Of a stretch of 64,000 nucleotides of DNA, positions 6,800 to 44,492 are shown piece after piece (position 1 is the stretch's first letter; each line of letters starts with the position of its first letter). The translations under genes and the position numbers were made by a program. The DNA is from Candidatus Kaiserbacteria bacterium (GTDB taxonomy: Bacteria; Patescibacteriota; Minisyncoccia; Phycocordibacterales; UBA918), in the NCBI GenBank assembly GCA_016204695.1, contig JACQKD010000004.1, positions 251 through 64,250 of the forward strand. The letters are read 5' to 3'. Under the pieces are notes generated by a model. It saw only the letters and a program-made list of their open reading frames with translations, was not told where the DNA came from and ran no database searches.

Positions 6800-7567
6800 A
6801 TGGATAACCAAGAAATAGGCAAAATCTTGCGATCGCTCAATTTGAGCGACAGCGAAACGAAAGTGTACCTCGCGTCCCTCTCGCTCGGTGAAAGTACCGC
6901 GTACGAGATCGCGAAGGTTTCGGGCCTTAAGCGGCCGACAGTGTATGTCCTGCTTGAAGGTCTCGTGGAGAAAGGTTGGATTACGTCATACAAAGGACGC
7001 GATAAGACGGTGCACAGCGCGGTGGAGCCGAAGCACGTGGTCGAACTCTGGAAAGGGAGAGTCGCGTCACTTGAAGCGATTTCCCCGGATTTGCATACAC
7101 AATACCGGCGTGCGCCCAAAACCCATCCGCAGGTGCGTGTCCTTACGGGCGAGAGCGGACTCGACACGGTGTATACTCAAATCATTACAAGTAAGGATAC
7201 CAAGGACGGGGAGATTTTGGCCTTCGGGTCGATACACGCGATCAAGTCGCGTTTCAGCCACTTGTTTCCAGTGTGGGAGAGGACGGTCAAAAACAAACGC
7301 AATCATATCAAGGAACTCATCAACAGAGAATCCGATGTGCAGGAGTATATTCGGCGGATGAAAGCATTGGGAAATCCTCATTATGAAATACGGGTCGTGG
7401 GTGGAGGCATGTTCGGAGCATGCGACAATCTCATATACCAAGACAGACTGGCGATGTTCTCGGTTGCAAAGGGAGAGGTATTCGGAACGGTCGTCGAGTC
7501 GCAAGATATTGTTCTGACCTACAAGACTCTTTTTAATGCCGCGTGGATGAAAGCGAAAAAAACATAA
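6800..7567 (+). CDS. TrmB-family transcriptional regulator (N-terminal wHTH).
   Basis: 'LSDSETKVYLASLSLGESTAYEIAKVSGLKRPTVYVLLEGLVEKGWI' is the typical TrmB N-terminal HTH. Length ~255 aa. Confidence 0.7.
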   Translation: MDNQEIGKILRSLNLSDSETKVYLASLSLGESTAYEIAKVSGLKRPTVYVLLEGLVEKGWITSYKGRDKTVHSAVEPKHVVELWKGRVASLEAISPDLHTQYRRAPKTHPQVRVLTGESGLDTVYTQIITSKDTKDGEILAFGSIHAIKSRFSHLFPVWERTVKNKRNHIKELINRESDVQEYIRRMKALGNPHYEIRVVGGGMFGACDNLIYQDRLAMFSVAKGEVFGTVVESQDIVLTYKTLFNAAWMKAKKT

Positions 7568-38690: not shown

Positions 38691-39800
38691 CTATTGTTTT
38701 GTTCCGAGCGCTGTGCCGGTCTTTTCGATCAAGGTCATGACGTCGTTGAAACGCCCTTCGCGGGTTGATCCGAGTACCGCGATGGCGATCGGTCGGTTGA
38801 GCCCGGCATCGTAGGCGATGACCAGATTGCCTCCGGCAAGCCGCGTGAAGCCTGTTTTCGAGCCGAGGATGCCGGGGATATCGTGCGTAACTTCATTCGT
38901 GTTGAATGCATTAAACGCGAGGCCTTCCTGGTTGTACACGGTGCGGAGAGCGTCTTTTGTCCCTTCAAGGATTTCCGGGCGGTGCAGTACCAGATATTCC
39001 ATAAGAAATGCCATATCGCGCGCGGAGCCGTAGCTTCCGCTCTTGGCCCCGTCGACGTCAAGGCCGGTGGGATTGGTGAAATATGACTGCGAAAGGCCGA
39101 TCTCCTCCGCTTTTGCGTTCATAGCGTCTATGAAGGCGCGTTCCGCGTGGTCTTGGTCAAGTGCGGCTCCCGCCGCCGCGGCCAAAGCATAGGCGCCGTC
39201 GTTTGACGAGGTGATGAGCGTCAGGTCGGTGAGCTCCCGGAGTGTGAAGGTGTGGCCGGTCGCAAGCAGACTATCGCCCTCTTGTTCCACCGCTTGTTGC
39301 GTAATCGATATCTGATCGTCGGATTGTAAGTGTTCGTAGGCGACCAGTGCGGTCATGAGTTTCGTGAGCGAGGCGAGCGGAAGCTGTGCGCTCGCGTTTT
39401 TGTTAAAGAGCGCCTTTTGGTTTTTTATGTCCCAGACATAGGCGGCATGCGCAGTCAGTTGTACATCGTTAAATGCGCTACCGTCCGGCTCTCCGGTCGG
39501 CCGCTCCACTCCCGCTTTTCTCCCCACCTCTTTTTTTTGTTTTTCGCCCATTGGCAGATAGGAAGCGCCGAAGAGGAGCGCGAGCATGCCGAGGGCGATC
39601 GCAAGTTGCGGCAGAGTCGGCATTCGATGGGCCGGAAGAATTGATGCGGAGGGAGTCGGAGCGAGAGTTTCCACGGCGGCAGGTTCCGGCTCCGGAGCGG
39701 TTGCCGGGTTTTCGGCGGCTTCGGATGGTTGGTCCGCAGACGGATTCCCTTCCATTTCTTCCTGCTGTGTGTCGTCCGTATCCATATGCCAATTACTCAC
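38691..39800 (-). CDS. Serine-type D-Ala-D-Ala carboxypeptidase (PBP5/DacA-like, S11).
   Basis: 'ASLTKLMTAL' (SxxK), 'SSNDGAYALA' (SxN), 'SKTGFTRLAGGNLV' (KTG). N-terminal acidic region plus TM anchor. Confidence 0.8.
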   Translation of the reverse strand: MSNWHMDTDDTQQEEMEGNPSADQPSEAAENPATAPEPEPAAVETLAPTPSASILPAHRMPTLPQLAIALGMLALLFGASYLPMGEKQKKEVGRKAGVERPTGEPDGSAFNDVQLTAHAAYVWDIKNQKALFNKNASAQLPLASLTKLMTALVAYEHLQSDDQISITQQAVEQEGDSLLATGHTFTLRELTDLTLITSSNDGAYALAAAAGAALDQDHAERAFIDAMNAKAEEIGLSQSYFTNPTGLDVDGAKSGSYGSARDMAFLMEYLVLHRPEILEGTKDALRTVYNQEGLAFNAFNTNEVTHDIPGILGSKTGFTRLAGGNLVIAYDAGLNRPIAIAVLGSTREGRFNDVMTLIEKTGTALGTKQ

Positions 39801-40407
39801 TGTCGCTTGATGTCGCTATCGCCTCCATATTCTCCTCGCGGGCGTTGTTCTCAAATACATCGATCTCGTCCATGACGGTCGCATACCGCGGCAGGTCTTC
39901 TTTTTTTGCAATACCCATATGCGCGTAGAGTGCGGGCGTGGCGGCGTATTCAAATGCATGTGCGCGCGTCTTGTGCGCAACGCGCTCGACGAGCCCGCGC
40001 ACCTGGAGATTGCGCAGAATGTATCCCGAGTTCACGCCGCGGATATAGTCGATCTGCGCGCGAGAAACCGGTCCGCGATAGAGCACGATTGCGAGCGTCT
40101 CCGCTCCCGCCTTCCCTATCTCGCGCGAGAGTTCTTCTTTGCGAAGTTTTTCTACGATTTCAGAAACCTCGGGCGCGCTTGCGAGCTGAACTTCGCTTCC
40201 GGTATCTATGAGTCGCGCCGCACCACGCGAGAGCCGCTCGCCCAAGCTCGCAAGCGCGCCCGAGAGCTCCTCCTCCGAAACACCCAAAAACTCTCCAAGC
40301 TCTTTCTTGGTCACCGGCTCCGTCCTATAAAAAAGCACCGCTTCGATCAGTACATCAGCGTTCACCCCAGAAGTATAGCAAACTTCCCTCCTGCTCACAC
40401 AAAACAT
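39793..40407 (-). CDS. scpB: Segregation and condensation protein B.
   Basis: 'LIEAVLFYRTEPVTKKELGEFLGVSEEEL...LASLGERL' and 'LAIVLYRGPVSRAQIDYIRGVNSGYILRNLQVRGLV' are the two ScpB winged-helix repeats. The true start may be GTG near 40365. Confidence 0.8.
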   Translation of the reverse strand: MFCVSRREVCYTSGVNADVLIEAVLFYRTEPVTKKELGEFLGVSEEELSGALASLGERLSRGAARLIDTGSEVQLASAPEVSEIVEKLRKEELSREIGKAGAETLAIVLYRGPVSRAQIDYIRGVNSGYILRNLQVRGLVERVAHKTRAHAFEYAATPALYAHMGIAKKEDLPRYATVMDEIDVFENNAREENMEAIATSSDSE

Positions 40408-40461
40408 ATGTGGTTAAGCCATAAAATATCATGTAGTTTTGTCACATGATATAATGAAACG

Positions 40462-40636
40462 GATCAACCAAATAGAACCCTCTCCAGCGGCAAAACGGGA
40501 GCCGGAATCCGGCTACGGTGAGTATAGGCAACGAGACGTGGCGTAAGACGGGAGGTACCTTGCTTGGAAACAGAGCATGTTCAGTGGAAATGGTTGAAAG
40601 AGAAATAGCCCTTAGGGGCTATTTCTCTTTCTTGGT
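40462..40636 (+). ncRNA. Candidate small RNA (~175 nt) with its own promoter and intrinsic terminator, in the gap between scpA and scpB.
   Basis: Extended -10 TGaTATAAT (40447-40455). No ORF. GAGCCGG-aat-CCGGCT internal hairpin. 13-bp perfect terminator stem AGAGAAATAGCCC-ttag-GGGCTATTTCTCT (40600-40629) followed by TTCTTGG. Family unknown. Confidence 0.35.
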
Positions 40637-40663
40637 GTCTGGAAAACTGACAATCTGATTGCT

Positions 40664-41428
40664 TTACGAATACCTTGGAGTGTCAACTGATTCGCGTTCG
40701 ATATCGAAGTCGGCGAAGCGTGCTTCTTGGCGCACCATGACGATGCCTTGCTTGACGAGTTCGAGGACGGCGAGGAAGCTCACAATCACGTCTCCCTTCT
40801 CTCCCCCGCCGTGGAATGTGCTGAAACTCATCTTGAAGTGCTCGGTGATGCGCTGTTCAAGCCTCTGCATCATTTCCTCAAGCGAGATGACTTTTTTCAC
40901 CGACACTTGCGTGCGCGCCGGGGCTTTTTTCGGGAGATTCAGCAGTACGCGCCCTATCGCTTCTTGCATGCTCTCTATCGTCGTATATGAGTCGGGTATG
41001 AAAAGCGGATCCGCCAGCTGGCGGACGGGTGCAAACGGCCGGGCATAGAGCATGTGCGAGCCGAACACTGCTCTGATACCATCGCTCGCCTCTTTATATA
41101 TTTTGTAGAGCTTGAGACGAAGCTCGAGGTCTTCGATACTCGCTTCCTCTTCGCCCGTGAGGTCGAGCATGGGAAGGAGCGATTTTGATTTTATCAAAAG
41201 CAGGGTCGAAGCGACGAGTACGAATTGCGCCGTCTCTCCGAGATGATGCTCTTGGTGGTCGCTGTGCTCCGGCGCTTCGAGTGCGCTGACATATGCCATG
41301 AAGTCATCCGTCACCGCGGCGAGTGAAATATCATTGATGAGGAGCTTGCGCTTCTCGATGAGGTCGAGCAGAAGCTCCATCGGTCCCTCAAACACCTCTG
41401 TCTTAATAGCAAATTGCGTATCCGGCAC
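40664..41428 (-). CDS. scpA: Segregation and condensation protein A.
   Basis: 'FEGPMELLLDLIEKRKLLINDISLAAVTDDFMAYV' is the ScpA N-terminal signature. ~254 aa. Confidence 0.85.
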   Translation of the reverse strand: MPDTQFAIKTEVFEGPMELLLDLIEKRKLLINDISLAAVTDDFMAYVSALEAPEHSDHQEHHLGETAQFVLVASTLLLIKSKSLLPMLDLTGEEEASIEDLELRLKLYKIYKEASDGIRAVFGSHMLYARPFAPVRQLADPLFIPDSYTTIESMQEAIGRVLLNLPKKAPARTQVSVKKVISLEEMMQRLEQRITEHFKMSFSTFHGGGEKGDVIVSFLAVLELVKQGIVMVRQEARFADFDIERESVDTPRYS

Positions 41429-41479
41429 ATGAGTATCATAGCAAATATAGAGCTATAATTAGCTCATCGAAAGATACGT

Positions 41480-41779
41480 ATGAATAGGACTTCGTATACA
41501 ACCCTTCTTACCGAAAAAGATAAAAAGAAAGTAGTATTTAGTACCCGTAAGGGTCGAGTTACATATTTCAGTGTCCATTACTATAGTCTGATAGATGGTC
41601 GGTGGCGTTCAATTATTCGTTTTGATACCGCTCATGGTCGTCCCCATAAGCATACTTTCCACAAAGATGGTCGAGAGTATAGAGTAGATATACCAGGTGA
41701 TTATGGTACAATCTTTACTGAAGCGGTAAAGCTAATCACGCGGCGTTTTGAGGGGATAAAACGAAATTATTTGTACTAG
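41480..41779 (+). CDS. Small hypothetical protein (99 aa) in a low-GC islet.
   Basis: Preceded by palindromic GAGCTA-TAAT-TAGCTC. 'DTAHGRPHKHTFHKDGREYRVDIPGDYG' has only a faint resemblance to HicA-type 'GSHH.F.H.DG' toxins, not conclusive. Confidence 0.4.
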   Translation: MNRTSYTTLLTEKDKKKVVFSTRKGRVTYFSVHYYSLIDGRWRSIIRFDTAHGRPHKHTFHKDGREYRVDIPGDYGTIFTEAVKLITRRFEGIKRNYLY

Positions 41780-41786
41780 ATATATT

Positions 41787-42038
41787 ATGACTAAAGGACA
41801 GGTAAAAAAGAATATCGCTTTGTCACTTGATTTTGATACTTACGTTGCTCGTAATCCGCGGGTGCTTCGCTCTGTACCAAAGGGTGTAAATATTATCCTG
41901 ACTTCTGCAAGGGACAATAAATTGTCTGATTCAAATATGCAGATGGCCAGATCAGCACGTAGTGGACGATTTGTCGTTGCGCACAAAGAGAGTCGTGGTT
42001 GGACAATTGATTCGTTTCCTCCTAAGGACAGAAAGTAA
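41787..42038 (+). CDS. Small hypothetical basic protein (83 aa) in a low-GC islet.
   Basis: Directly downstream of the previous ORF (7-nt gap). No recognisable domain. Confidence 0.4.
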   Translation: MTKGQVKKNIALSLDFDTYVARNPRVLRSVPKGVNIILTSARDNKLSDSNMQMARSARSGRFVVAHKESRGWTIDSFPPKDRK

Positions 42039-42045
42039 TTTTAGT

Positions 42046-42132
42046 ATCTCTCCGCGATGAGGGTGAGGAGGCGGATGGGTTCGCCGGTGGCGCCTTTGGC
42101 GAGCTTGTCGCTTGCGACGGAGGTCATGCGCG
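42046..42132 (-). pseudogene. Duplicated 3'-terminal fragment of pepA (direct repeat copy 1).
   Basis: ~87 bp matches 43103-43189 with 4-5 mismatches. The minus strand encodes '...RMTSVASDKLAKGATGEPIRLLTLIAER', the pepA C-terminus. The plus-strand ORF 42057..42275 in the track is an artefact of this copy. Confidence 0.6.
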
Positions 42133-42143
42133 AGCCGATAGCT

Positions 42144-42749
42144 TTATTCAGTAGTTGTAGAAACTTCTGCTTGGGGGTCATTTACATATATTACAACATT
42201 TTCCTTTCCATCAGGTTCGCCAGAAGTAAGAGTTGCCAGTGCCAGAAGCGTTGTAACTACTGCGGTCAACAGTGAGATAATAATCTGAACGCCAATTTGT
42301 TCAACAGGCTTTAATGTCTCTGGAATATATTTGCACCAGAAGTATCGCTTGTTTAGAAGCTCCGTACCTTTGTCTGCGCCCACACGAATAAGACGCAAGC
42401 TAGACTTATCGTCGTCGAGTGCATCTGTCAAATTTTCAGGTTCTCTGAAGTGAGGATTTGGTTGATCGATTACGAACTTGTTAGCAATGCAGGTTCGCAG
42501 TAGGTTTTTCCAATTTCTTATGTAAGCTACATCCGTCTCCTCTTTTTGGTACTTCTGCATCATTGCTCTCAAGAGCTTATTCTCAAGTACCCAGAACTTC
42601 GTGTCGCCTACAAAGAAAAGCGGTATTCGTTCATGCTTTTGTTGGTGTAGTCGTTTGAGTTCCTTATTTTCAAAGTCCTCTAACTCTCGCACCAGCTTTC
42701 TTTGTTCCCATAAAACTGCCATGCGCCCCAATATACCCTTTTCTCCCAA
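42144..42749 (-). CDS. Hypothetical protein with a soluble N-terminal domain and C-terminal TM anchor, low-GC.
   Basis: 201 aa. ~150-aa charged domain, then 'IGVQIIISLLTAVVTTLLALATLTSG' and a short acidic tail. Tail-anchored topology. No recognisable domain. Confidence 0.45.
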   Translation of the reverse strand: MGEKGILGRMAVLWEQRKLVRELEDFENKELKRLHQQKHERIPLFFVGDTKFWVLENKLLRAMMQKYQKEETDVAYIRNWKNLLRTCIANKFVIDQPNPHFREPENLTDALDDDKSSLRLIRVGADKGTELLNKRYFWCKYIPETLKPVEQIGVQIIISLLTAVVTTLLALATLTSGEPDGKENVVIYVNDPQAEVSTTTE

Positions 42750-43097: not shown

Positions 43098-44492
43098 TTA
43101 ATACCTCTCCGCGATGAGGGTGAGGAGGCGGATGGGTTCGCCGGTGGCGCCTTTGGCGAGTTTGTCGCTTGCGACGGATGTCATGCGCGGGGCCATGTCT
43201 ATGTGCGCCCACTTGCAACCGTCGGGGTAGCCCTCGGCGAAATGCGAGAGGAACATGCCGCCATTGATGGCGCCGCCCCATTTGTATCCGGAAGCGGGGA
43301 TATTTGCCACATCGCCGAAGCGGCCTTTGATGTACTGCTTGTATTCGTCCCAGAGCGGGAGCGGCCAGAGATAGTCGCCGCTTTCTTCGCCGAGCTTCAT
43401 GAATGTTTCGCGGACGGCGTCGTCTTTTGTCATGAGCGCGGAGCAATGCTCGCCGAGCGCGACGAGCGATGCGCCGGTGAGTGTCGCGACATCAACGACG
43501 AGCCTTGGAGAGTATATCTGCGCGTAGGTGAGCGCGTCAGAAAGGACGAGGCGGCCTTCCGCATCGGTATCGAGCACGTCAATAGTCTTTCCCGAGCGGC
43601 CGACGAGGACATCTCCCGGATGCAGACTGTCGTCCGAGATAGCGTTTTCGGTCGCGGGCACGAGGCCGATGATGTTTTTCTTGAGTTTCAATTTTGCCGC
43701 GAGAACGACTGCGCCGATGACCGCCGCGCCGCCGGACATGTCGAGGTGCATGTCGAGCATTGCACCTCCCACTTTTACGTTAAGCCCCCCGCTGTCGAAG
43801 GTAATGCCTTTCCCGACGAAGACGATGGGCGCTTCTTTTTTGCTTGCTCCATAGTATTCGAGGATGATGAATCGCGGGCCGTGCTTTGCCCCGCGGCCGA
43901 CACCGAGGAGCGCGCCCATACGCTCTTTCTCGATGCGCTTCTTGTCAAAGACGGTGACGCGCGCGCCCGTGCCTTTTACCATCTGCTTGGCGTGCTCGGC
44001 AAGGAGCGAGGGGGTCATGATGCTTCCCGGCGTGTTTGCGAGGTCGCGGCATTTGTTGACTTCGGTTGCGATGACGACTGCGCGGTCAAGCGCCTTTTTC
44101 GCCTCCGCACTTTGCACGCCGGAGATGAGTATCTCTTTGATGTCGTGCTTGTCTTTCTTGTACGCGGTGTATGTATAGTTTGCCAGGAGGAAATTTTCCG
44201 CCATGGTCCCGACGATCCAAGTGGCATCATGCGTCTCCAGTTGCGGGAACGGATGTTCGATTTCCACCACAAGCCGGTCTATCTTGTGCGTTTTTGCGGT
44301 GCGGACGATAGCGCGGCAGAGTGTGCGAAATGTGCGGACGTTTACGTCCTTGTATTTTCCGGCGGCGATAGAAAGTGTCGTGGAGCCGTCCTGTTGTTCG
44401 ATGTATTTTGACTCTTCCCCTTCGTGCCACGCGATGCGCACGCAGTCTTTCGGGAGCGTCTTTGAGTTACTGATCGGAGTTATTTTTGTCAT
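43098..44492 (-). CDS. pepA: Leucyl aminopeptidase (M17 family).
   Basis: 'LVGKGITFDSGGLNVK', 'DMSGGAAV', 'NTDAEGRLVLSDAL' and 'ATLTGA' are the M17 signature blocks. Confidence 0.9.
   Translation of the reverse strand: MTKITPISNSKTLPKDCVRIAWHEGEESKYIEQQDGSTTLSIAAGKYKDVNVRTFRTLCRAIVRTAKTHKIDRLVVEIEHPFPQLETHDATWIVGTMAENFLLANYTYTAYKKDKHDIKEILISGVQSAEAKKALDRAVVIATEVNKCRDLANTPGSIMTPSLLAEHAKQMVKGTGARVTVFDKKRIEKERMGALLGVGRGAKHGPRFIILEYYGASKKEAPIVFVGKGITFDSGGLNVKVGGAMLDMHLDMSGGAAVIGAVVLAAKLKLKKNIIGLVPATENAISDDSLHPGDVLVGRSGKTIDVLDTDAEGRLVLSDALTYAQIYSPRLVVDVATLTGASLVALGEHCSALMTKDDAVRETFMKLGEESGDYLWPLPLWDEYKQYIKGRFGDVANIPASGYKWGGAINGGMFLSHFAEGYPDGCKWAHIDMAPRMTSVASDKLAKGATGEPIRLLTLIAERY

Follow-up and report, generated by a model that had tools for sequence, protein, structure and literature searches.

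A candidate small non-coding RNA gene in the scpA–scpB spacer of a Paceibacterota genome

The scpA–scpB junction and its variability

The window, by which we mean the whole 64-kb stretch of DNA that was analysed, carries the genes scpA and scpB on its minus strand, and the spacer between them contains the signals of a transcription unit on the plus strand. The two genes and their start signals are the following.

40664-41428, minus strand: scpA (Pfam SMC_ScpA, 1.2e-19)
41435-41443, minus strand: extended -10 of scpA, TGCTATGAT, then 6 nt and the GTG start at 41428
39793-40407, minus strand: scpB, longest open reading frame (Pfam SMC_ScpB, 8.3e-35)
40380-40372, minus strand: extended -10 of scpB, TGCTATACT, then 6 nt and a leaderless GTG at 40365
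40366-40425, minus strand: conserved block upstream of scpB, kept in the relatives L002, L004, L006 and L040

The gap of 256 nt given in the first-pass annotation is correct for the distance between the open reading frames (40408-40663) but not for that between the genes. The Pfam match of ScpB starts at residue 20 of the long open reading frame, whose first 14 codons are without coding conservation in the relatives and contain an in-frame stop in L004. As read from these alignments, the real start of scpB is the GTG at 40365, 42 nt later than that of the long open reading frame, and the scpA–scpB gap therefore becomes 298 nt (40366-40663). The -10 element and the GTG of scpB are conserved also in L003 and L007. 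As the extended -10 of scpA sits 6 nt before its GTG, scpA likewise appears to be leaderless and a unit of its own. Promoters of the type TGnTAnnnT occur at nine leaderless genes in the 64-kb window (1.76 expected), and many genes of this organism appear to be leaderless. Throughout this Paceibacterota clade, scpA and scpB are uncoupled, each with an extended -10 promoter and a leaderless start of its own.

The premise that a small RNA has split a normally contiguous scpA–scpB pair is wrong for this clade, in which relatives lacking the RNA already have a spacer of ~105-130 nt. This short spacer, with a separate scpB promoter and empty of cargo, is found in L006, L007 and L040, and that of L006 carries a terminator-like hairpin. 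A spacing of ~580-700 nt with orphan open reading frames is observed in L002-L004, and such unrelated frames fill the junction in four relatives altogether (L002-L005). The inserted frames of L002-L004 are related neither to each other nor to the gap that holds the RNA here, and those of L002-L004 and L005 have no significant Pfam match. For the further ScpA relatives L039 and L040, the slot lies beyond the contig coverage or is empty. In distant Firmicutes and Proteobacteria the tblastn matches of scpA and scpB lie close together. Among the relatives compared, no contiguous pair is found in this clade, the junction is a variable slot, and this slot holds the small RNA in this genome only. The candidate RNA gene occupies this variable intergenic slot in a lineage-specific way. 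This mends the local gene map, in which scpA and scpB are now read as separate leaderless units and the junction as a hot spot of gene turnover.

Promoter, body and terminator of the predicted RNA

The features of the plus-strand unit and its surroundings are listed here with reference to a homolog on an AT-rich Paceibacterota contig, L029.

40426-40434 / 40444-40452, both strands: AT-rich 9-bp inverted repeat, ATATCATGT-N9-ACATGATAT
40447-40455, plus strand: extended -10 of the small RNA, TGATATAAT
40462-40635, plus strand: predicted small RNA transcript, ~174 nt, with start and end placed from the signals and the L029 homology
40462-40596, plus strand: conserved non-coding body, 135 nt, identical to L029 in 117 of 141 alignment columns
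40464-40470 with 40591-40597, plus strand: proposed helix P0, which closes the body; four pairs invariant
40476-40487, plus strand: invariant body block AACCCTCTCCAG
40479-40484 (CCUCUC) with 40550-40555 (GGGAGG), plus strand: proposed helix P1, from RNAalifold
40489-40518, plus strand: invariant body block, 30 nt
40499-40514, plus strand: hairpin P2, AGCCGG-AAU-CCGGCU, sequence identical in L029
40527-40536, plus strand: invariant body block
40540-40559, plus strand: invariant body block GGCGTAAGACGGGAGGTACC
40559-40579, plus strand: proposed hairpin P5; one pair changes from U-A to C-G between the two sequences
40578-40586, plus strand: invariant body block
40596-40611 / 40616-40631, both strands: 16-bp perfect palindrome (loop TTAG), predicted to act as an intrinsic terminator in both directions

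The extended -10 noticed in the first-pass annotation is indeed present and matches TGnTATAAT perfectly. It is one of only two TGNTATAAT sites in the 64 kb on both strands, with a chance expectation of 0.78. The -35 is weak, and the promoter is of the type used by scpA, scpB and other leaderless genes here. Its counterpart in L029 is TGTTATAAT at L029 1633-1641, with equal spacing to the first conserved bases, and both copies have a putative promoter of their own at this fixed distance upstream of the conserved RNA. The homologous stretch in L029 (1647-1828) sets in at the predicted +1 (GAUCAACCA / GAGCAACCA) and stops at the terminator. RNA polymerase would start ~7 nt past TGATATAAT, near G40462, and would transcribe through the ~135-nt body and stop at the terminator (40596-40631), which places the likely 3' end just past the latter. 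The 3' arm of the AT-rich inverted repeat overlaps the -10. On the minus strand TTTTAT follows this repeat, where relatives have a terminator-like hairpin. The repeat is absent from L029 and therefore lies outside the conserved unit; it may serve as an operator or as a weak terminator on the minus strand, or may be a scar of the junction.

The terminator hairpin is real, but the stem described previously as 13 bp at 40600-40629 is actually 16 bp long and shifted by one base. It has A-rich 5' and U-rich 3' flanks and a G+C-rich stem top. A T-rich tract follows as claimed (TTGGTGTC) but is modest, most of the U-run being the 3' arm of the stem, and a consensus terminator scan did not call the palindrome. 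The L029 terminator is only 53% identical, with 15 of 15 pairs kept and six compensatory double changes; slid controls of the pairing are only 38-49% paired. The RNA thus appears to have kept its 3' intrinsic terminator in evolution. The perfect palindrome, the A-tract 5' and U-tract 3' and the position between convergent units are shared with bidirectional terminators of convergent genes, while the U-run here is largely inside the stem, the tail is weakly U-rich and the function is a predicted one. On the minus strand the palindrome stands 32 nt past the scpA stop, and it would work both ways, also ending the convergent scpA transcript. A role as scpA terminator, proposed earlier as an alternative, is compatible with the plus-strand reading and no rival to it, the palindrome being typical of bidirectional terminators.

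The GAGCCGG-aat-CCGGCT hairpin seen in the first reading is confirmed at 40499-40514 (P2), with C40496-G40517 and G40497-C40516 as possible further pairs. In the predicted, weakly tested fold, the 5' end would pair with the stretch that immediately precedes the terminator (P0), the invariant P1 would enclose a junction bearing P2, and P5 would follow. The outermost pair of P0 is U-A here and G-C in L029, according to the alignments. All six pairs of P1 are invariant, so covariation neither backs nor contradicts this helix. Among the 25 body pairs of the two sequences, 23 never vary, one changes on both sides (in P5) and one is disrupted in one of the two; with only two members known, there is almost no room for covariation in the body to show. 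The covariance model scores of 199 bits here and 224 bits for L029 are expected to be high by construction. Fold z-scores of the whole gap are -3.4 on the plus and -6.0 on the minus strand and stem wholly from the pair of palindromes. On neither strand do the intervening 141 nt fold better than shuffles (z ~0). The alifold energies of the two strands are near-equal (-22.8 vs -21.5).

The statement that the unit has no open reading frame needs a correction, since plus-strand frames of 35 and 46 aa exist, but neither is conserved. No open reading frame is common to both copies, and the conserved blocks lie in different frames. Having no conserved reading frame, the RNA is judged to be non-coding.

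The homolog L029 and the search for further copies

L029 (source sample Ga0055584) was found by a metagenome scan with a 20-mer from the RNA body. Its alignment with the window spans the -10 to the terminator and nothing beyond. The body is 83% identical; it has six indels, each 1-2 nt long and never 3. In L029 the RNA adjoins V-ATPase B/D genes and not scpA/scpB, with a divergent 116-aa gene on one side and a gene starting MP.. on the other. The 116-aa gene, the minus-strand neighbour, is separated from the element by a TTGACA-N17-TATACT promoter of its own, and no minus-strand gene in need of termination is found upstream of the hairpin. By its V-ATPase D, L029 is close to Parcubacteria OLB19 (85% identity), whose ScpA is only 49% identical to that of the window. 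The G+C content is 40% in the L029 DNA vs 54% in the window, and within L029 it is 50% in the RNA body and 33-34% in its flanks.

Known members of the RNA are two, in the window and in L029. A single 20-mer scan catches near-identical copies only (at 81% identity ~1.5% of homologs match), so the rarity of the RNA is not inferable from it. The other four 20-mer matches (L030-L033) fall by chance in coding DNA rich in G+C. Four viral contig scans gave zero hits or one chance coding match (L034), and blastn against phages and plasmids gave no match to the RNA. A search with nhmmer --max and the covariance model over the window and the Paceibacterota loci compared returned self matches only. The V-ATPase D relatives of L029 (L035-L038, L041-L044) are without the RNA, and the region is variable there too. 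Thus, at the corresponding locus, the RNA is absent in all close relatives examined of either genome.

The Rfam/Infernal check of the predicted RNA that the first-pass annotation had called for matched no family. The 4227 covariance models of Rfam 15 gave no match at the gathering threshold in the whole window. Permissive searches (E <= 10) of 39800-41500, of 40440-40650 (211 nt) and of L029 hit the terminator hairpin only, with scores far under the thresholds of the families concerned, which are generic hairpin or miRNA-like ones. ARAGORN found no tRNA or tmRNA gene in the whole window, and a six-frame chimera of both copies searched against 5.8 billion proteins returned nothing at E <= 10. 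The RNA is not described in the literature found on non-coding RNAs of these bacteria, in searches aimed partly at other questions; PMC12641178 is irrelevant to this RNA. RNase P, group II intron domain V, c-di-GMP-I, omega/bridge RNAs and retron msr were rejected on features; in the window no reverse transcriptase or recombinase lies nearby, and no Y1 transposase is found.

Interpretation and alternative readings

With a probability of roughly three in four, the scpA–scpB spacer holds an independent plus-strand gene for a small non-coding RNA of ~174 nt, antisense to both neighbours. Promoter, body and terminator are conserved together in L029, which favours a plus-strand non-coding RNA gene over a spacer, leader or protein gene. 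The signals, their conservation, the non-coding nature and the differing contexts are seen directly in the sequences, whereas the exact transcript ends, the fold and the way the RNA acts are inferred. The discrete plus-strand unit of ~175 nt predicted earlier is well supported, since L029 keeps both signals around the 83%-identical body in an unrelated context and with a compensated terminator. The plus-strand reading also agrees with the lack of an upstream minus-strand gene in L029 and with the U-G pair of P1, which is valid on the plus strand only, its minus-strand counterpart being an A-C mismatch. That the region could prove to be a 5' UTR element of scpB only is contradicted by the scpB promoter and leaderless GTG between element and gene. 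As this -10 sits 6 nt before the GTG, the element lies upstream of the scpB promoter and is no scpB leader or riboswitch.

A non-functional filler, in which the hairpin serves as scpA terminator and the rest is decaying, horizontally acquired scrap, left over from a cargo cassette of the kind found in the relatives and resembling L029 through recent transfer, is unlikely. It would suit a variable junction filled with unrelated orphan open reading frames in L002-L005, an element that no close relative of either genome has at the equivalent locus, and a body without excess fold stability. However, the L029 homology is bounded by promoter and terminator and is not a random fragment, no frame has a protein relative, and the L029 hairpin has no upstream minus-strand gene to terminate. 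In particular, the terminator is 53% identical with every pair kept, while the body is 83% identical with invariant runs of 30 and 20 nt; this contrast points to differential constraint rather than uniform recent transfer. A cis-acting plus-strand RNA, like a riboswitch or attenuator, whose terminator gates read-through (antisense into scpA here, into the next gene in L029) is very unlikely. In its favour are the architecture, a multi-helix junction with long unpaired stretches that are invariant and a terminator after it, the resemblance of GGGAGGUACC to the T-box core GGGUGGUACC, and a plus-strand gene that starts ~140 nt downstream in L029. But this gene has its own TGGTATAAT promoter and leaderless ATG, and the downstream contexts share nothing, the next plus-strand gene of the window being ~850 nt off, across the antisense scpA. 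Furthermore, the terminator is a self-contained perfect palindrome with no evident alternative pairing with the body, and the 211-nt query has no Rfam riboswitch or T-box match at E <= 10.

We regard a very small protein gene or a type I toxin-antitoxin pair as hardly credible. The candidate frames are a plus-strand one of 33 aa (TTG 40560) and a minus-strand one of 29 aa (40442-40531) with VAGFRLPFC. Both copies have a strong Shine-Dalgarno-like GGGAGG followed by TTG at spacings of 4 and 9 nt, yet the plus-strand frame of 33 aa in the window has only three codons in L029. VAGFRLPFC is common to the minus-strand frames of both copies, where two nearby indels total 3 nt, but it is the mere translation of the invariant palindromic hairpin. 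These minus-strand frames (29 and 55 aa) have neither promoter nor ribosome-binding site, their start codons differ and their C-termini are unrelated; no called protein resembles any frame. A type I toxin-antitoxin system was rejected because the small frames on both strands differ between the homologs in start, length and sequence.

For the independent RNA gene, the occurrence of the unit at a non-homologous locus in a distant genome suggests selection on the RNA itself and a conserved job independent of scpA and scpB. Since the RNA is absent in close relatives, its high identity could partly reflect recent horizontal transfer instead of long purifying selection. The RNA most likely acts in trans. 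Its long invariant, mostly single-stranded stretches suggest protein or ligand binding at the junction, or base-pairing via the pyrimidine-rich 12-mer AACCCUCUCCAG, as possible modes. As a local side effect, the RNA may form a duplex with the 3' end of the scpA mRNA across the common terminator. Duplex energies of the seed or the full RNA with the start regions of 66 window open reading frames show no outlier, and a 12-nt match of the RNA tail to scpB at 40300-40311 is at chance level (E = 0.81).

Stand-alone trans-encoded small RNAs with a pyrimidine-rich conserved motif are known, for example RoxS/RsaE of Firmicutes. The candidate resembles this type in its intergenic gene of one to two hundred nt, sigma-70-type promoter, Rho-independent terminator as 3' domain, non-coding nature and a C/U-rich stretch that lies close to the 5' end and is invariant. 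In contrast to this type, it matches no Rfam small RNA family in sequence or structure, and in the predicted fold its C/U-rich stretch pairs with the internal GGGAGG and is not exposed in a loop. Shine-Dalgarno targeting is also less obvious here, because many genes appear to be leaderless. With a T-box riboswitch the RNA shares a GGGAGGUACC core near GGGUGGUACC, a terminator hairpin after it and a total of ~170-180 nt. The T-box was rejected, since the UGGN tRNA-acceptor bulge reads AGGU here, RF00230 gives no hit at E <= 10, there is neither a Stem I/specifier nor an antiterminator competing with the terminator, and no aminoacyl-tRNA-synthetase or amino-acid gene lies downstream. Size, conservation in distant lineages and raised G+C in an AT-rich genome recall 6S RNA and SRP RNA. 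Both were rejected, since neither Rfam nor ARAGORN gives a match and close relatives lack the RNA at the syntenic locus; as predicted, the RNA folds into a P0-closed multi-branch junction with a separate terminator, in contrast to the rod with a central bubble of 6S RNA and the long hairpin of SRP RNA.

It is conceivable, though doubtful, that we are dealing with a self-contained cassette of structured RNA, which is passed on horizontally among candidate-phyla-radiation genomes and settles in variable intergenic 'cargo slots'. These slots would be the scpA|scpB junction here and, in L029, a site downstream of the V-ATPase operon by a Y1-transposase-type gene. If true, the cassette would represent a new accessory RNA class with its own function instead of a vertically inherited regulator; an RNA toxin or antitoxin, an anti-phage RNA and a mobile-element guide-like RNA are examples of such functions.

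Candidate-phyla-radiation bacteria are uncultured organisms with tiny genomes, whose annotation is almost confined to proteins and a few universal RNAs. To our knowledge, essentially no regulatory or accessory RNAs have been described for them. As judged from sequence, the candidate is for now a good lead rather than a discovery. For a candidate spotted by eye its support is unusually good, as the putative, complete promoter-RNA-terminator unit is 83% conserved between two lineages that share only ~49% identity in ScpA and differ by 14 points in G+C content, and the two-copy alignment with its covariance model provides a seed for searching Paceibacterota MAGs.

Genes, promoters and signals around the scpA–scpB gap

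Both genes are confirmed by Pfam, and the nearest named relatives of the window ScpA are found in Candidatus Paceibacterota and Nomurabacteria, which makes the source a candidate-phyla-radiation bacterium. The region contains the following features:

40664-41428, minus strand: scpA
41443-41435, minus strand: extended -10 of scpA, TGCTATGAT, with GTG 41428 after 6 nt
39793-40407, minus strand: scpB as the longest ORF
40372-40380, minus strand: extended -10 of scpB, a conserved motif, then GTG 40365
40447-40455, plus strand: extended -10 of the proposed sRNA, TGATATAAT, one of two TGNTATAAT sites in the window (0.78 expected by chance)
40426-40452: AT-rich 9-bp inverted repeat, ATATCATGT-N9-ACATGATAT, overlapping the sRNA promoter
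40499-40514, plus strand: hairpin GAGCCGG-aat-CCGGCT
40596-40611 / 40616-40631, both strands: terminator palindrome, a 16-bp perfect inverted repeat

A conserved TTTGnTATACT, with GTG exactly 6 nt on, precedes scpB in the window and in L002, L003, L004, L006, L007 and L040 (scpA loci of relatives). It is a predicted extended -10 promoter with a leaderless start, and by this prediction scpB is its own transcription unit throughout the clade. The 14 codons 5' of this GTG in the long scpB ORF are not conserved as coding sequence, their frame is interrupted by a stop codon in L004, and similarity to ScpB in Pfam starts only at residue 20. This places the scpB start at 40365 and lengthens the spacer to 298 nt; the two genes are apart, as the first-pass annotation had noted, but not by its 256 nt. 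The predicted arrangement of scpA is the same, an extended -10 and then GTG; the gene callers placed its start at an internal ATG, giving the 238-aa P0001. In the window we counted nine cases of an ORF of at least 60 aa with TGnTAnnnT 5-8 nt before its start codon, compared with 1.76 in shuffles (further starts at 6800, 10133, 26496, 46769 and 20163). TGnTAnnnT is thus a native promoter type here and many genes are apparently leaderless, which suggests that leaderless mRNAs are common in the source organism. A 60-nt block 5' of the scpB start (40366-40425, minus strand), opening with ATGGCTTAACCACA, is conserved in L002, L004, L006 and L040. It reaches well past the -10 element and may include a regulatory site in its upstream part.

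The sRNA promoter lies back-to-back with that of scpB, with ~67 nt between them. Both it and the GAGCCGG hairpin were found in the gap as first described, and the large palindrome is likewise present, though with 16 bp and not as the 13-bp stem reported. The whole gap folds more stably than its shuffles (z of -3.4 on the plus and -6.0 on the minus strand) because of the palindromes only; the 141 nt between them have a z of ~0 on both strands. The suggested Rfam search gave no family: Rfam 15 has no match at gathering threshold in the gap or in the entire 64 kb, where ARAGORN also finds no tRNA or tmRNA. The 9-bp inverted repeat is specific to the window. Read on the minus strand, it precedes TTTTAT, at the place where relatives carry a terminator-like hairpin; possible explanations for it are a weak terminator, an operator and an insertion junction.

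A second copy and the nature of the predicted RNA

A metagenome scan with an exact 20-mer from mid-gap as query returned five matches. Four of them fall in G+C-rich coding DNA and are due to chance. True homology is confined to the fifth contig, L029 (Ga0055584_100211409, 1972 nt), in which 176 nt align at 81% identity and the 9-bp inverted repeat is lacking. The homology has sharp borders, the -10 at one end and the hairpin with its Ts at the other. It opens with TGTTATAAT (L029 1633-1641), at the same distance to the first conserved bases as TGATATAAT in the window. In the body 117 of 141 columns are identical, with invariant runs of 12, 30, 10, 20 and 9 nt. In the terminator identity drops to 53%, yet all 15 counted pairs are kept, six of them via changes on both sides; when the partners are slid by 1-3 columns as a control, pairing falls to 38-49%. 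The L029 copy follows V-type ATPase B and D genes and lies beside a divergent ORF for a 116-aa membrane protein. A near-consensus TTGACA-N17-TATACT promoter stands between this ORF and the element. The plus-strand gene that follows carries a TGGTATAAT of its own and a leaderless ATG.

Promoter, spacing, body and terminator are thus kept while the surroundings differ, which argues for an independently transcribed gene, and we put the probability of an independent plus-strand non-coding RNA gene at roughly three in four. The discrete plus-strand unit of the first-pass annotation gains support from this conservation in an unrelated context. A leader of scpB, which that annotation had named as the alternative, or of the L029 neighbour, can be ruled out, since promoters sit between each gene and the element. 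A coding role is opposed by the indels between the two copies, six in all and each 1 or 2 nt long, never 3, and by the conserved blocks, whose reading frames differ between the copies. Moreover, window and L029 have no ORF in common on either strand, and none of the six frames has a relative among 5.8 billion proteins. Four points assign the gene to the plus strand. Its -10 is conserved on this strand, the hairpin comes at the 3' end when read in this direction, L029 has no minus-strand gene upstream for the hairpin to terminate, and a U-G pair in helix P1 would become an A-C mismatch on the opposite strand. T-box, 6S, SRP, tmRNA, type I toxin-antitoxin and 5'-leader identities were rejected on tests of their features.

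If the RNA starts 7 nt past the -10, as assumed for leaderless genes, it would run from G40462 to just past 40631, ~174 nt (~182 nt in L029). With its sigma-70-type promoter and intrinsic terminator, the predicted gene belongs in kind to the ordinary stand-alone sRNA genes of bacteria.

Variable sites in both lineages

The scpA locus was compared in nine relatives. The two genes are contiguous in no member of the clade examined; the adjacency assumed in the first-pass annotation is seen in distant bacteria and fails in this lineage. The junction content varies:

Window and L001 (same sequence): the sRNA element
L006, L007, L040: empty, ~105-130 nt, then the scpB promoter block; in L006 a terminator-like hairpin with a T-run precedes the block
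L002 1228-1855, L003 3093-3669, L004 1124-1835, L005 827-1486: one orphan ORF each, of 151, 155, 169 and 134 aa

None of the four ORFs has a significant Pfam match, and those of L002-L004 are unrelated to each other and to the gap of the window. Except in L001, the gap sequence is absent from this locus in the relatives examined. Read from these sequences, the junction is a hot spot for gene gain or turnover. The orphan ORFs of L002-L005 are co-directional with scpA, each with its own Shine-Dalgarno sequence. They are bounded on one side by the scpA stop and on the other by a terminator-like hairpin whose base is conserved (GAGCCGC...GCGGCT in L004 and L005); a similar hairpin is found in the empty slot of L006.

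Other features are seen near scpA in the window. A 99-nt direct repeat (42041-42139 and 43098-43196) has copies that are 93% identical and lie at a distance of 1057 nt. The second forms the 3' end of an M17 leucyl-aminopeptidase gene (43098-44492, minus strand), the first is an orphan duplicate of that end, and the ~1 kb between them contains a 201-aa ORF of unknown function (42144-42749, minus strand). In L003 the aminopeptidase gene directly abuts scpA. The segment has the look of an element that inserted into the gene at its 3' end and brought a replacement end along. Between it and scpA, on the plus strand opposite to scpA, lie adjacent small genes for DUF7718 (99 aa, 41480-41779) and DUF5647 (83 aa, 41787-42038), which may be another accessory pair.

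Parcubacteria OLB19 has a V-ATPase D with 85% identity to the one in L029 and a ScpA with only 49% identity to that of the window. The G+C content is 40% in L029 and 54% in the window; within L029 the element body has 50% between flanks of 33-34%. In both lineages the element sits where close relatives differ, in the scpA|scpB slot or after atpD. L029 relatives at 87% DNA identity carry a Y1-transposase gene there and no sRNA, and more distant ones other genes. These variable sites, and an identity of 83% between lineages far apart in phylogeny and base composition, allow either strong purifying selection on a gene with shifting location or horizontal transfer of a cassette. A lone homolog does not show the element to be rare, since an exact 20-mer would catch only ~1.5% of homologs at ~81% identity. 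The Y1_Tnp (IS200-like) gene encodes 222 aa (L036 1880-2030 region, also L037 and L038) and is preceded by an inverted repeat, a ~48-nt tandemly duplicated stretch and an extended -10 with leaderless ATG. L029 has 30 nt of this upstream region in common with them (L029 1917-1972), and a gene opening ATGCCAAG (MP..) stands ~140 nt past its sRNA terminator, at the contig end; it is possibly of the same kind.

Proposed helices and possible action

From RNAalifold and inspection of both copies we propose a closed architecture with these helices:

P0, 40464-40470 with 40591-40597: joins the 5' end to the segment right before the terminator; outer pair U-A in the window, G-C in L029
P1, 40479-40484 (CCUCUC) with 40550-40555 (GGGAGG): invariant
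P2, hairpin 40496-40517: invariant
P5, 40559-40564 with 40574-40579: one compensatory pair

Between the two sequences 23 of 25 body pairs show no variation, and the body is thermodynamically no more stable than shuffled sequence. Long invariant stretches lie between the helices; they suggest that a protein or small molecule recognises the RNA specifically, or that it base-pairs in trans. Neither the pyrimidine-rich 12-mer nor the whole RNA has an outstanding partner among 66 gene-start regions in the window, and an anti-Shine-Dalgarno mode is not compelling since many genes here have no leader. The palindrome is a predicted bidirectional terminator common to the sRNA and the convergent scpA. 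Since this setting is missing in L029, an influence on scpA or scpB would be no more than a local by-product. The best-supported statement is a putative trans-acting structured sRNA. To our knowledge almost no such RNAs are known in this bacterial group. As a candidate for a new sRNA family the element is well supported, though on the thin evidence of two copies.
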